DNA from: a virus
Lineage: Duplodnaviria; Caudoviricetes
Virus record (IMG/VR): IMGVR_UViG_3300028591_000086
Span: 131,467-195,466 of that record
DNA length: 64,000 nucleotides
Strand: one strand, 5' to 3'
Shown here: in pieces, positions 3,267-53,536 of the stretch
Position numbering within the stretch: position 1 is the stretch's first letter
How the letters are laid out: each line of letters opens with the position of its first letter
Program-made: the position numbers and the translations under genes
The notes under the pieces: generated by a model
Seen by the model: the letters and a program-made list of their open reading frames with translations, nothing else
Databases searched by the model: none
Told to the model about the DNA's origin: nothing

Positions 3267-3380
3267 GACATTTTCCTCCTTTTCTATTTATTCAATAATA
3301 TAATATAAACGTTTGATTATAGATTGATTAAAATATGTATTAATATTAAATACAAAACAAAATAATGATTGGAGGCGAAT

Positions 3381-4232
3381 ATGTTTGAAAATATGCCATG
3401 GTGGGTATCTGCTATTATAATTATTCTTGCGATTTGTGTTGTATTTGTATTTTTATTAATAGTCATTAAAAATAATAAGGATATAGATGCAACTGCTGAA
3501 ATAGGAGATAATTCGTTCGGGTTACAGGTTCAGAGTAGTAGCAATAATAATCAATCTATAAATGAAAAACCCCATCAAACTTCATTATTTACAGAATATG
3601 AATTTATTAAAAGTTATATTATGTCTATATTAGATTCACATTCGTTGATAACATCGATATTCACGATGATAGCGAATAAAGAAGATATAAATGACAAGAT
3701 ATATCTAAGAATTCTAAAAAACAATGAAATTAATTTTAAACATTTAAATATTAATGTAAAGATTATACAAAAATTGTATAAAAATTATTCGTTGAAAATT
3801 AAAGAAGAATTATCAAAATCTGTTATAAATATTAAGAATAATTTAGAAGATATTAATTCCGTATCATTAAACATAGATAAATTCTGTATGCTATTCGAGT
3901 CCGATAGTTTTATAGATATTATAATTCAGGAGTTTAAAAATAAAGGTTTTAAAACTGAATTATTAGATGGTGATTCTTATTCGGCATCTATTGAAACTCT
4001 AGATGATAAAATATTCAAATCGTTTAAGTATAAGATTCGTAGACATTCTGTTGAATTAGTTAGCGAAATAAAACTAGCTAAAACTCGATTGATGAATACT
4101 GATGATAAAATTATTAAATTATTGTCAATTTTATATTGTGTAAATTCTACATACGATGCTGTACTAAAACACTTATATGAAGTGTATTTTGAATGCAAAC
4201 CTGCTGTCATAGGAGATAGCGAAGGAGTGTAA
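3381..4232 (+). CDS. Hypothetical protein with N-terminal TM helix
   Basis: GGAGG RBS before ATG 3381; hydrophobic WWVSAIIIILAICVVFVFLLIVI. Confidence 0.8.
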   Translation: MFENMPWWVSAIIIILAICVVFVFLLIVIKNNKDIDATAEIGDNSFGLQVQSSSNNNQSINEKPHQTSLFTEYEFIKSYIMSILDSHSLITSIFTMIANKEDINDKIYLRILKNNEINFKHLNINVKIIQKLYKNYSLKIKEELSKSVINIKNNLEDINSVSLNIDKFCMLFESDSFIDIIIQEFKNKGFKTELLDGDSYSASIETLDDKIFKSFKYKIRRHSVELVSEIKLAKTRLMNTDDKIIKLLSILYCVNSTYDAVLKHLYEVYFECKPAVIGDSEGV

Positions 4233-33500: not shown

Positions 33501-35929
33501 TATCAAATCTACATCAAAACGTTTCTATCCAAATTATGCTAATAATAACTGGTCTGTTAATGAAGCTGCTATTAAATATGATATAGATTTGAAAAACCGT
33601 GTTCTTGCGGATATTAAAGAGAACCATAGGGATTATTTTGATAGATTAGTTAACGTATTTAAAGCCAATATTGATCTTATGCGTGAGCTTAGATTGGAAA
33701 TGGTTGTAACCGAAGGATGCGTTAACGATTATACTATTGTTTCTGATGGTAAAATCTATCCTGATTGCGAAACTAGTACCATGGGTTGTAGAACATATAA
33801 CGGTTACGATATCAATTATGAAGAAGTGTTCCGTAGAAACCTTGATTGTGTTGTGGGAGCAAACGGACTTGCAATTAATGATATTGAACCTTATTTTAGT
33901 GCTGCTCAGAAAGATGGTAGAGGTAATATCTGTCCTGAAACAATTATTCTTCCAACTCTTGCTATGGAAGCAAAGACTAATAATCCTCACATGATTGAAG
34001 AATTTAAAAATTTCAATGTTGATATTGATGTTGAAAAAGCTAGCTTAATTGATAAGTTTATGGCTTATCTTGATATTGAAATTGCTAGAACAAGAGATTC
34101 TTTAATTAACAGATATGAATATATTTGTTCCCGATCACCAGATGCAGCAACGTTCATGTGGGTAAATAAAACAATGGTAGGTTATATTCCTGAACAAGGA
34201 TTAGAATCTGCTATGAAACACGGTACGTTAGCAATAGGTCAACTTGGTTTATCTGAAACTCTTAAGATTCTTATAGGTGTAGATCATACTACCTCAAAAG
34301 GAATGGAATTAGCAAAGCGTATTGAAAATCTATTCAATAAACGCTGTAAAGAGTTTAAAGAAAAATATAAGTTGAATTTTGGGGTATACTATAGCCCTAA
34401 ACATAAATTAAGTGGGGCACATACAAGTAATTGTATGATTAAAAACTGTGTTAAACGGGCGTAGTGTAATAAACTGGTAAGAAAGGCTAAACCTATTAAT
34501 AAGGCAAGCTAACCCCGTAGGATGAATTAAAATTATAATTATGGTTATATATTATAGACGTAAGGAGTTATATAATATATGGCTAGACGAAAATTTACAA
34601 ATAAACTCATTGACAAAAATACTATTTCTGAGAAAATTAAATTGATCAAAGGCAGTACAACGGATTATATATCTGAATCTGGAAAGGTTTATAAAGATTA
34701 TGGTGATGGAAAAATGCTTCCTAAGCATATTAAACCTAATGTAAATAACGGATATGTTTATGTAGGTATTACTATAGGTAATAAAAATATCAGTAAACGT
34801 GTACATAGATTAGTTGCTGAAGCATTTATACCTAATGATGATCCTAAAAACAAAACTGTTGTAATGCATAAAGATAATAATAAAACTAATAACAATGTTG
34901 AAAATTTAAAATGGGGAACTATTTCAGAGAACACAAAACAGGCGTTTAATGACGGTTTAGCAGTGAATGATAAATCTTGGGATGATTCACAATCTATACC
35001 TGTTAAAACCATTGATAAAAATGGCAAAACTATTGACGCTTTTGGTTCAATGAGAGAAGCTTCTAGAATTACAGGTGAAAAACTTGCTATAATACGTTAT
35101 CATTGTAATGCTGAGGTAGATCCTAAAAAATTAAGAAAATGTAAATATTGTTTTAGATATATAACAGAAAAAGATCATATATGTCAATGTAAAAAGAAAT
35201 GATTTTAATTCGTTCTCTAACGACTATCGAAAGCATAGCTAAGAAGAAATATCTTAGTGAAGAAGCGAGTAGAGTAGAATCAAGTGATTCGAAATGCACA
35301 GCTCCCACGATTTGGTAAAAAGAATCGTGGGATGATGATATAGTCTAATCCCCTAATAAATATCGGGAAACCGAGGGTATAAAATACGAATAATGGCTGA
35401 AAGTTTATGTTTTACTGCTATGACAGCATTTAAAGATAAATATGGTGAAATTCTAGGCATAACAACTCATACTGATGGAAGTGAAAAACTTTATTTCACT
35501 AATAGTATGCATGTTCCTGTAGAAGTTAAGTTATCTGTATTTGATAAGATCGATATTGAATCGCAACTTACAGGATATTCTAATGCCGGTTGTATAACTT
35601 ATGTAAGATACGGTAATACTGCTAAGAACAATCCTCGTGCTATTGAACAAGCTGTAGTTCATGCTATGGAAAAAGATGTTCCATACTTTGCTGCAGATAT
35701 TGATTCTGATATGTGTATGGATTGTGGTTATATTGGATCTATTCCTGTAAATCATACTTGTCCTAAATGTGGTTCTGACCGAATTTCAAGAACAGAACGT
35801 GTAACTGGATATTTGAATCCTAACTGGATAACTTCTCCTGTGTCATCAGGTGGATTTAATTTAGGAAAACAAAATGAAAATCTTCATCGTGAAGATAACA
35901 CAGATCTTTTCTGTGCTTATGAGGAATAA
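30536..35929 (+). CDS. nrdD: Anaerobic ribonucleoside-triphosphate reductase, spliced from 4 exons (30536-31429, 31791-32107, 33306-34398, 35396-35929; 945 aa)
   Basis: ATP cone; splicing restores QQFG^GVAAT, SGNQL^PFSSINYG and YYSP^AESLC; MGCRT, CxxC..CxxC, glycyl-radical RVTGYL; exon total 2838 nt is in frame. Confidence 0.93.
31430..31790 (+). mobile_element. Group I intron 1 in nrdD (361 nt, no endonuclease)
   Basis: P1 TTCGGT/GCCGAA, terminal G, P7 GACTAT/ATAGTC. Confidence 0.9.
32108..33305 (+). mobile_element. Group I intron 2 in nrdD with LAGLIDADG HEG
   Basis: P1 CAGCT/GGCTG, terminal G at 33305, candidate P7 GCGTA/TACGC. Confidence 0.88.
32231..33067 (+). CDS. LAGLIDADG homing endonuclease (two motifs)
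   Basis: YFLGLIFTDG and FLRGIFDGDG; GGAG RBS. Confidence 0.9.
   Translation: MNFKLTEDLKDKVVEFYLSRPMSLDTASYKFRICKPKIVEILKSRNIEIYTKNQIFNPNFDERYFQNIDSEIKAYFLGLIFTDGNVFIKENECSKKITQVSLTLKDEDRYILEILRKELKTNRVITSDNRGSLTLSVRSNLMGEDLKKYNIVPNKSLTIHFPEIDENLKKYFNHFLRGIFDGDGSIQFRIGDKRVKYSVGLSAGNPIVLEQIRDILVDELKLFPVSVYEYSNKYTCMLTWQSAKDMFKICEYLYKDSTIYLERKRKIYDNFKQYYFTR
34399..35395 (+). mobile_element. Group I intron 3 in nrdD with HNH HEG
   Basis: P1 GCCCT/GGGGC, terminal G at 35395, P7 GACTAT/ATAGTC. Confidence 0.9.
34579..35202 (+). CDS. HNH homing endonuclease (I-HmuI-like architecture)
   Basis: VHRLVAEAF...HKDNNKTNNNVENLKW...EN; C-terminal FGSMREASR NUMOD1-like motif. Confidence 0.9.
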   Translation: MARRKFTNKLIDKNTISEKIKLIKGSTTDYISESGKVYKDYGDGKMLPKHIKPNVNNGYVYVGITIGNKNISKRVHRLVAEAFIPNDDPKNKTVVMHKDNNKTNNNVENLKWGTISENTKQAFNDGLAVNDKSWDDSQSIPVKTIDKNGKTIDAFGSMREASRITGEKLAIIRYHCNAEVDPKKLRKCKYCFRYITEKDHICQCKKK

Positions 35930-36856: not shown

Positions 36857-36884
36857 ACAAAATATAGATTATATATTTTATTTC

Positions 36885-36989
36885 TGTCTAAGTAGAGTAA
36901 ACTAATTCGGATTCAACTGATTCTATATTCCCTCCCACCCATAGAATTTGTTTGAAGTGTCCTTTCTCCAGTTTTACTATACTTAGGCA
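36885..36989 (+). ncRNA. Hairpin sRNA candidate with C-rich anti-Shine-Dalgarno-like loops
   Basis: TGTCTAAGTA/TACTTAGGCA closing stem; loop ATTCCCTCCCACCC; bulge TCCTTTCTCC; promoter motif immediately upstream. Confidence 0.5.
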
Positions 36990-36995
36990 ATTTTT

Positions 36996-37106
36996 GATGT
37001 AGTAGTTTAAATAGTAAAACGAAAGACATTTTTAATTAATATAGTTTTCCATAACTCGTCCATGTTGAATGTGTCTTTTATACAGGTTCAAGTCCTGTCT
37101 ACATTA
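36996..37106 (+). ncRNA. tRNA-like RNA with extended anticodon stem and ~27-nt loop
   Basis: GATGTAG/CTACATT acceptor; GTTT/AAAC D-stem; ACAGG-TTCAAGT-CCTGT T-arm; AAAGACA/TGTCTTT stem extends to ~15 bp. Confidence 0.7.
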
Positions 37107-37150
37107 ATACAGAAAATGGTGTTTTCTGTAAATCAAATCCTTTAAGCATT

Positions 37151-37180
37151 GAGAACCACCGAAAGGTGGTTCTCTTTTTT
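37151..37180 (+). terminator. Intrinsic terminator closing the small-RNA locus
   Basis: GAGAACCACC-GAAA-GGTGGTTCTC-TTTTTT. Confidence 0.85.
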
Positions 37181-37266
37181 ATTTAAATTCGATTATAATC
37201 CTGTGAATAGGGTAGGGTGGTATTTTTTTATTTGTTTTTAAACTTAATAATACATAGGTAATTAAT

Positions 37267-43246: not shown

Positions 43247-43924
43247 ATGAATAGTAAAAATAAAAAAGATGGTATCTGTTTGATATCGTCACCTACTAAA
43301 AAAGATAAACGTGATGGATATAAAGATTGTCTTAGTAAGAGAATAAAAACCGTTCAGGTTATTAAACTTTATTCTGATGATATAACTAAAGATGATGAAC
43401 GGCAGATGTGTTCTATTCTTAGAGAAATAGATCCAGAAAAATTTTCAACAATACAATATAGACCAGATTATGAACAAATATTGAAAATTGAAAAAGAATT
43501 AGTTGACGGCAATATGCCTGAAAATATGGAGTTATTGTTTTTATCAAAGACACAGTTATTAAAATCAATAGATAATAATAAACTTGATTTGATTATACCT
43601 GTAGAAGTATATGTTTGTGGAACAAATCCTAATTCGACATTTTATAAATTAAATTATGATGACGAGTATATGAGAAAACAGGTGTTACATAATATAGTAT
43701 CTTTCGTTGTGGTTAAATATTTAGCCACAATATCGGAAAATGATTATATTGTAGTTTATAGATTAATGGCTGATGGATTGATTGAATCTATGTGTTATGA
43801 GGATAATGAAGGAAATAAAGTTCCGTTCCTTATACCTATAAAATGTAATAAAATTATCGATTTTATTGATAATGAAGATCGTGATAAAATGGAGAAATTA
43901 TATGGAAAATTATATACCTGTTAG
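43247..43924 (+). CDS. Hypothetical protein
   Basis: 225-aa ORF. Confidence 0.75.
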   Translation: MNSKNKKDGICLISSPTKKDKRDGYKDCLSKRIKTVQVIKLYSDDITKDDERQMCSILREIDPEKFSTIQYRPDYEQILKIEKELVDGNMPENMELLFLSKTQLLKSIDNNKLDLIIPVEVYVCGTNPNSTFYKLNYDDEYMRKQVLHNIVSFVVVKYLATISENDYIVVYRLMADGLIESMCYEDNEGNKVPFLIPIKCNKIIDFIDNEDRDKMEKLYGKLYTC

Positions 43925-53272: not shown

Positions 53273-53536
53273 ATGATTATGGAAAACATTTTTACTATTA
53301 TTTTAGCTTACCTCATTACAGGAGGTATGTTTGTGCTAATTACTTTGTTTAAGGTAATTAGATTCATCGTTAAGTCTGATGATAAGGACATCACAGCAGT
53401 TATAGCTGCTAAAAAAGATCTCTTCAGTCAGATAGGATGGAAGATATGTGCATGGATATATGCACCGATATCTTTCGCCTTCGTGCTATTGGCGTTTTTG
53501 ATAGCGGCGATATCGTCGTTATTTCGTCGTCGGTAG
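53273..53536 (+). CDS. Small two-TM protein
   Basis: Two hydrophobic segments, AAGGAG RBS. Confidence 0.75.
   Translation: MIMENIFTIILAYLITGGMFVLITLFKVIRFIVKSDDKDITAVIAAKKDLFSQIGWKICAWIYAPISFAFVLLAFLIAAISSLFRRR

Follow-up and report, generated by a model that had tools for sequence, protein, structure and literature searches.

A tRNA-shaped module with a variable anticodon-side arm in a predicted small-RNA unit of related phages

Cleavage by RNase P and RNase Z is known to define the end of an adjoining RNA at mascRNA (the MALAT1 3′ end), at plant mitochondrial t-elements and in mitochondrial tRNA punctuation. A tRNA body has also served as a laboratory tool: with the engineered tRNA scaffold of Ponchon, Dardel and colleagues (PMC3753655), fusions made in E. 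coli are processed and protected like tRNAs. In phages, the closest published parallel that we found is that of the Lak megaphages (Devoto et al. 2019, PMC6784885), whose oversized tRNA genes with “enigmatic introns” are recognised as intron-bearing only under eukaryote settings. Beyond these “enigmatic introns”, full-text literature searches yielded no paper that defines a non-decoding tRNA-like class in phages.

Here we examine a tRNA-shaped element in the final 64 kb of an IMG/VR virus record (195,466 bp, 29% GC, ~70% complete); this 64-kb stretch, analysed as a whole, is referred to as the window. Longer assemblies, of the same phage or of close relatives, span 258–321 kb. We put at about an even chance the reading that the element is a non-decoding tRNA-like RNA within a small non-coding unit, its tRNA shape serving for processing or stability, or else for mimicry, and that it is neither an antisense guide nor a translating tRNA.

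The cloverleaf and its extended arm

The Rfam tRNA model (RF00005) aligned over its full length (model positions 1–71) to 36996–37106 of the + strand with 44.7 bits, above the gathering threshold of 29, so that by fold the element qualifies as a tRNA; in this alignment 46 nt occupy the place of six loop positions. The allele with the shortest module, L023, reached 45.2 bits with the same model. The minimum free energy (MFE) fold of 36996–37106 is a cloverleaf with an acceptor stem of 7 bp, a D stem of 4 bp and a T stem of 5 bp, and none of 200 shuffles was as stable (z = −3.9). Its anticodon arm runs through 9 bp, a 1×1 mismatch and 6 bp before closing on a 27-nt loop, in which 17 of the 27 nucleotides (63%) are pyrimidines. 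The first-pass annotation of this DNA had described intact acceptor, D and T arms with an anticodon stem extended to ~15 bp below a ~27-nt pyrimidine-rich loop, and this description is borne out.

As the Rfam alignment and the allele table show, the tRNA tertiary core (U8, A14, G19 and a UUCRANY-type T loop) is in place. One detail counts against the reading that we favour: in its D loop the window allele has a single G (AG), whereas most alleles have GG. Default ARAGORN made no call at 36996–37106. The insert in the arm (37028–37072) has no second copy in the genome, and the idea that it is a repeated mobile element was therefore dropped. The features of the element and of its immediate surroundings are collected in Table 1.

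Table 1. Features of the small-RNA unit in the window, with the evidence for each
Feature	Position	Strand	Basis or remarks
AT-rich promoter-like motif, head of the small-RNA unit	36866–36881	+	near-identical in the window, L015, L016, L017, L026 and L027; recognisable in L003
Long hairpin with C-rich loop, upstream partner	36885–36990	+	fold z = −4.3; 0/200 shuffles as stable
Acceptor stem, 5′ strand, U at −1	36996–37002	+	pairs with 37099–37105; 7/7 pairs standard in 8/8 alleles
D arm, 4-bp stem and 8-nt loop	37005–37020	+	Rfam alignment
Base of anticodon-side arm, 5′ strand, 6 bp	37022–37027	+	pairs with 37073–37078
Variable insert, 45 nt: two further pairs, 1×1 mismatch, 6-bp helix, 27-nt loop	37028–37072	+	fold
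Base of anticodon-side arm, 3′ strand	37073–37078	+	allele table
Variable region, 3 nt	37079–37081	+	Rfam alignment and allele table
T arm, 5-bp stem and canonical 7-nt T loop	37082–37098	+	Rfam alignment and fold
Acceptor stem, 3′ strand, and discriminator A; CCA not encoded	37099–37106	+	Rfam alignment and allele table
Conserved 10-bp hairpin, starting one base past the discriminator	37108–37130	+	fold; identical in L015–L027, retained in L003
Intrinsic terminator, 10-bp GC-rich hairpin and U run	37151–37180	+	fold of 37107–37182, z = −6.2

Other tRNA-like loci were seen in the same genome. At window positions 13453–13535 there is a tRNA-like fold without a D arm (z = −3.0), which has a 7-bp acceptor stem, an anticodon-type hairpin, a long extra arm and a canonical T arm; it received no ARAGORN call and no Rfam tRNA match, only a 19-bit match within the tmRNA clan. 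A tRNA-Leu(UAA) gene at 14535–14835, called by ARAGORN in intron mode, has its anticodon interrupted between positions 34 and 35 by an insert of 213 nt. This insert matches Rfam Intron_gpI at 14566–14763 (41.2 bits, E = 1.6×10−8, below the gathering score of 50) and is probably a compact, ORF-less group I intron. Just past this gene, at 14839–14960, a second tRNA shell had been proposed. In the centroid fold its acceptor, D and T stems remain formed, but the overall fold is no better than that of shuffles (z = −0.76), and the stretch has no Rfam tRNA match. Outside the window, a partial tRNA match of 41.5 bits (G000:C1:2657-2715) covers model positions 6–65 only, with an incomplete acceptor stem.

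Alleles at a conserved site and their rates of change

The 245-aa protein encoded beside the unit has 43 homologs in public assemblies, and the relatives share a conserved gene order: nrdD, nrdG, a gene for 143–145 aa, a gap containing only RNA, the 245-aa gene and, farther on, an RNA polymerase beta-like gene. Seven further copies of the element, six of them distinct in sequence, were found at this same site in related uncultured phages. The module is 110 nt long in L015 (= L019), L016 and L017 (= L021), 153 nt in L026 and L027, 72 nt in L023 and 75 nt in L003/L004, a relative at 84% identity.

In relatives at 51–71% protein identity the gap contained no tRNA-like element, whether the Rfam gathering score or a limit of E = 0.05 was applied, and our own scan of distant relatives for acceptor and T arms likewise gave none. 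Exact-pattern scans of IMG/VR with the 3′ half of the shell, with a degenerate version and with the conserved trailer had no matches; a metagenome scan returned only the contig already known as L001. Searching 50,697 phage records with the unit by blastn produced chance matches only, and the L023 allele gave a non-significant match to a Klebsiella phage tRNA-Met (75%, E = 0.2). A “mini tRNA-like” stretch picked out by eye in L001 (5826–5892) was dropped at a fold z of +0.2.

The neighbouring genes also differ among these phages. In close relatives an extra ORF with its own promoter-like motif separates the small-RNA unit from the 245-aa gene; it encodes 152–154 aa in L015–L017, L026 and L027 (~949–1413 of L016) and 86 aa in L003 (3666–3926), and is missing from the window phage. 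The gene nrdD, for the anaerobic ribonucleotide reductase, is split in several of these phages; the gap contains an HNH endonuclease ORF in the window (34579–35929) and in L003 (1–2378), and a GIY-YIG ORF in L005 (1–2572). It is also split in L008 (492–2947) and L012 (1–1744) and uninterrupted in L007 and L010, and weak group I intron matches occur in L001 (3294–3516) and L012 (487–807).

The allele table comprises eight alleles including that of the window, seven of them distinct, with 22 shell pairs each. Standard base pairs fill 175 of the 176 cells, and double compensatory changes were found in all four helices. They fall at pairs 2, 5 and 7 of the acceptor stem, at pair 2 of the D stem (U-A to C-G in L023), at pairs 1, 3, 4 and 6 of the arm base, and in the T stem, where four of the five pairs (pairs 1–4) are altered on both sides in L003. 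The U at −1 before the module is conserved across alleles, and the discriminator is A, G or U. The near-complete pairing and the compensatory changes are good evidence, drawn from comparison of sequences, that the shell fold is under selection, and they argue against decay. It is therefore very unlikely that the element is a functionless tRNA pseudogene tolerated between genes. Such a relic would account for the missing decoding loop, for an arm that varies freely and for the absence of the module from more distant relatives, but not for a single non-standard cell in 176, for double compensatory changes that extend to L003, or for the conserved promoter motif, 3′ hairpin and terminator that the unit has to itself.

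The arm behaves differently from the shell. Beyond the 6-bp base, the window insert measures 45 nt and that of L015–L017 44 nt, against 87 nt in L026 and L027, where it includes an additional long hairpin, and 5 nt in L023 and L003; the total arms are thus 57, 56, 99 and 17 nt, respectively. A motif common to the inserts (~37050–37063) was considered as a functional site and rejected. Because its predicted structural contexts differ between the window and L026, we treat it as shared ancestry.

Between the window and L015–L017, the four-fold sites of two flanking genes differ by ~15–25% and the shell by ~9%, and the insert is identical to that of L017 at 32 of 48 positions, with three indels. 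The values for shell and insert fit a constrained shell bearing a weakly constrained or unconstrained arm. A sharper comparison is offered by L023, the nearest relative of L015–L017 (97.6% identity in the 245-aa gene). Its flanks differ from theirs at 0–1 of 98 nt upstream of the module and at 5–11 of 190 nt downstream, whereas the module differs at 10–12 of 71 aligned positions and has in addition a 40-nt gap in L023. The module is thus 5–8-fold more diverged than its flanks (Fisher P = 1.5×10−4 to 3.4×10−4), and the changes in its stems are compensatory. This excess may reflect either cassette exchange by recombination or faster evolution with the fold kept.

Such turnover has a possible, if unlikely, explanation in an arms race. 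The RNA would act as a tRNA mimic or decoy that binds a host or phage tRNA-recognising factor, such as a defence nuclease directed at tRNAs or a toxin that modifies tRNA ends, and the conflict would drive the turnover of arm and stems. The divergence hot spot that separates L023 from L015–L017, with every stem change compensatory, speaks for this, as does the finding that the arm was rebuilt three times among phages 95–98% identical in the adjacent gene. Set against these points, exchange of alleles by recombination can yield an equal pattern without selection on the sequence, and the divergence of the window and L017 inserts is only modestly above that of the flanking four-fold sites. A further proposal, which we consider quite unlikely, is that of a natural tRNA scaffold kept as a fast-turnover cassette. 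Its arm would be cargo or bait diversifying in conflict with a tRNA-recognising factor of the host; that it is a programmable pairing element is less likely still. The proposal draws on a fold held by compensatory change while stems and arm are replaced between phages otherwise 96–98% identical.

Decoding, splicing and antisense pairing

A canonical anticodon loop (7 nt with U33) is absent from all alleles, including those with short arms. The 17-nt arms of L023 and L003 are as long as a normal anticodon arm; that of L023 folds into a stem of 7–8 bp with a UGA triloop (3 nt) and that of L003 into a 7-bp stem with a 5-nt loop. When read as 7-nt loops, they present A33 or C33 and a pyrimidine at 37. 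Decoding calls for a 5-bp stem closed by a 7-nt loop in which position 33 is U and position 37 a purine, and the window has instead a 45-nt insert on a 6-bp stem. The identities assigned by ARAGORN (with or without intron mode) were Ile(AAT) in the window, Arg(TCT) in L016 and L017, Ser(TGA) in L023, Arg(TCG) in L026 and Val(AAC) in L027, with nothing in L015 or L003. The orthologous copies therefore do not share an anticodon and discriminator, and no single excision rule yields a common anticodon across the alleles.

These observations bear directly on the possibility of an intron-containing tRNA, from which an insert of 38–45 nt would be removed to leave a decoding product, such as a tRNA-Ile with anticodon AAU or UAU. 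In its favour, ARAGORN run with -i calls a tRNA-Ile(AAT) whose intron is 38 nt long and whose loop has U33 and G37, AUA and AUU codons are expected to be frequent at 29% GC, an allele without the insert exists (L023), and the oversized Lak tRNAs have been read as intron-bearing (PMC6784885). However, the predicted anticodon changes from one allele group to the next or is lacking, the discriminator varies, and neither short-arm allele has a canonical loop, all of which makes splicing to a normal tRNA unlikely. Nor does the fold suggest an intron: the arm is a continuous stem with one 1×1 mismatch and has no bulge-helix-bulge (a 4-bp helix between two 3-nt bulges, situated at the exon–intron junctions). 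A splicing endonuclease (PF01974) was absent from the ~70%-complete record, with controls matched in archaea, and neither RtcB nor RNA-ligase families were found in the 195 kb of that record; in the search with PF09511 (T4 Rnl1), the control itself matched in no genome. Intron_gpI had no match in 36900–37200 at E up to 1, in contrast to the 41.2 bits at the tRNA-Leu gene, and the insert is far too short for a group I intron. On this evidence an intron-containing tRNA is highly improbable.

The first-pass annotation had suggested that the tRNA shell carries an antisense guide, and the complementarities on which it built this suggestion exist. Positions 37045–37057 are the exact 13-nt complement of 13186–13198 and 14246–14258, which lie inside two identical tRNA-Asp genes. 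A 15-nt pairing with one G-U falls at 43901–43915 and spans the ATG of a 213-aa ORF (gene 43902), and an 11-nt complement is found at 53277–53287, directly past the ATG of an 87-aa ORF (gene 53273). Each of the three matches rests on the complement of AUGGAAAA, with which genes of this AT-rich genome commonly begin (Met-Glu-Lys/Asn). In 500 dinucleotide-preserving shuffles of the 46-nt insert, 49% of the shuffled inserts had a perfect complement of at least 13 nt on the + strand of the 195-kb genome, in line with the caution, voiced at the outset, that matches of this length can arise by chance in AT-rich DNA. Similarly, when the 27-nt loop was paired by RNAduplex with 184 start regions (−25 to +15), the best duplex reached −15.6 kcal/mol, and 62% of 150 loop shuffles were equal or better; the top-five mean and the number of strong duplexes were also unremarkable.

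The 13-mer is interrupted in the nearest relatives, L015–L017, the short-arm alleles L023 and L003 lack it altogether, and in the predicted fold the matched stretch is partly paired inside the arm. Thus the loop has neither the complementarity beyond chance nor the conserved seed expected of a base-pairing small RNA. The antisense proposal had itself named complementarity no better than that of shuffled loops as the outcome that would undo it, and this is the outcome that we obtained. What stands of the proposal is the structural half, since the homologs that it had called for do combine a conserved shell (175/176 pair cells) with a variable arm (17, ~57 or 99 nt). That the loop pairs with tRNA-Asp or with phage mRNA start regions and so controls them is, in spite of the matches and of a loop that varies on a constant shell, an explanation to which we attach very little probability.

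Proposed processing and comparison with known systems

Alignment of the unit revealed a conserved order of promoter-like motif, C-rich hairpin, tRNA-like module, 10-bp hairpin, spacer and terminator. The terminator is conserved, with a compensatory stem variant in L026, and the AT-rich motif at the head (36866–36881) is a putative promoter. Within this predicted unit, a non-decoding tRNA shape would adjoin other RNA in one transcript, as in the mascRNA and t-element type.

The reading that we favour, a non-decoding RNA whose tRNA shape serves for processing, builds on the fold, the covariation, the missing decoding loop, the operon context and the failed antisense statistics, from which we infer that the unit is transcribed and processed. 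A phage promoter would drive the C-rich hairpin, the tRNA-like module, the short hairpin and the terminator as one unit. Selection would hold the L-shaped upper body, that is, the acceptor/T stack, the D arm and the elbow nucleotides, and the anticodon-side arm would need only to stay a hairpin, free in length and sequence. Host RNase P would cut the 5′ end after U−1, and RNase Z cleavage and CCA addition would take place at the 3′ end. The module is in this manner probably excised by the two enzymes and given CCA, a role suggested by the processing and stabilisation in bacteria of the engineered tRNA scaffold with a hairpin arm (PMC3753655). Its excision would at the same time determine where the C-rich hairpin RNA upstream ends on its 3′ side, and the stable tRNA-shaped RNA left over may be a by-product or a tRNA mimic.

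Two observations count against a role in processing. Distant relatives keep the C-rich hairpin without the module, which means that the module is not required for maturation of the hairpin in general, and the local 5–8-fold excess of divergence is not predicted by a pure processing handle. The C-rich loop of the hairpin was retained in all relatives examined, down to 51% identity of the neighbouring protein. Since the hairpin is present in every relative examined and the tRNA-like module is absent from the distant ones, the module is a clade-specific addition, and the hairpin the older component of the unit.

The C-rich hairpin was also located in L001 (5905–5996), L003 (~3340–3445), L005, L010 and L012. 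The 16-nt core of its loop recurs in other low-GC IMG/VR contigs (L043, L044, L048, L052, L063 and L077), where it is never followed by a tRNA-like shell, and the hairpin matches no Rfam family. It may be a phage small RNA of wide distribution whose loops resemble an anti-Shine-Dalgarno sequence.

These findings matter for annotation. Genes of this kind are missed by tRNA finders (default ARAGORN) or are given spurious, mutually inconsistent identities (intron mode), and phage “tRNA” counts and the codon-usage arguments based on them can therefore be wrong. In addition, the allelic series, in which arms of 17, 57 and 99 nt sit on one shell in near-identical contexts, amounts to a natural experiment. 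It suggests that the arm is dispensable for whatever maintains the shell, and that the tRNA shape alone is selected in a phage small-RNA operon.

How the element relates to described systems differs from case to case. With the Lak oversized tRNAs it shares the character of a gut megaphage gene too long for bacterial tRNA models and the occurrence of alleles with and without an insert. In contrast, the Lak inserts are reported to be typically identical across cohorts, within tRNAs whose anticodons can be assigned, whereas in the present element nothing varies more than the insert and no consistent anticodon emerges. The stable RNA C of phage T4 (species 1 RNA, rnaC) resembles it as a stable phage RNA with a canonical T arm and a terminal helix. 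However, rnaC has no D arm and is not scored as a tRNA by Rfam, where its best match is 17.5 bits to tRNA-Sec (E = 0.76); it lies beside tRNA genes, whereas the present element is a full cloverleaf at 44.7 bits located away from the tRNA cluster. Like mascRNA and the t-elements, the module is a non-decoding tRNA shape that adjoins another RNA. Those systems are eukaryotic or organellar, while cleavage of the phage module is proposed from its shape, and its partner hairpin occurs without the module in other relatives. As in the engineered tRNA scaffold, the acceptor, T and D arms are kept and the anticodon stem-loop is the insertion site that remains a hairpin. The scaffold is a laboratory design, and the element described here is natural and sits in a phage small-RNA operon, its insert being a candidate cargo at most. 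Should a role as decoy or carrier be established for the released RNA, the engineered tRNA scaffold would have its natural counterpart in it.
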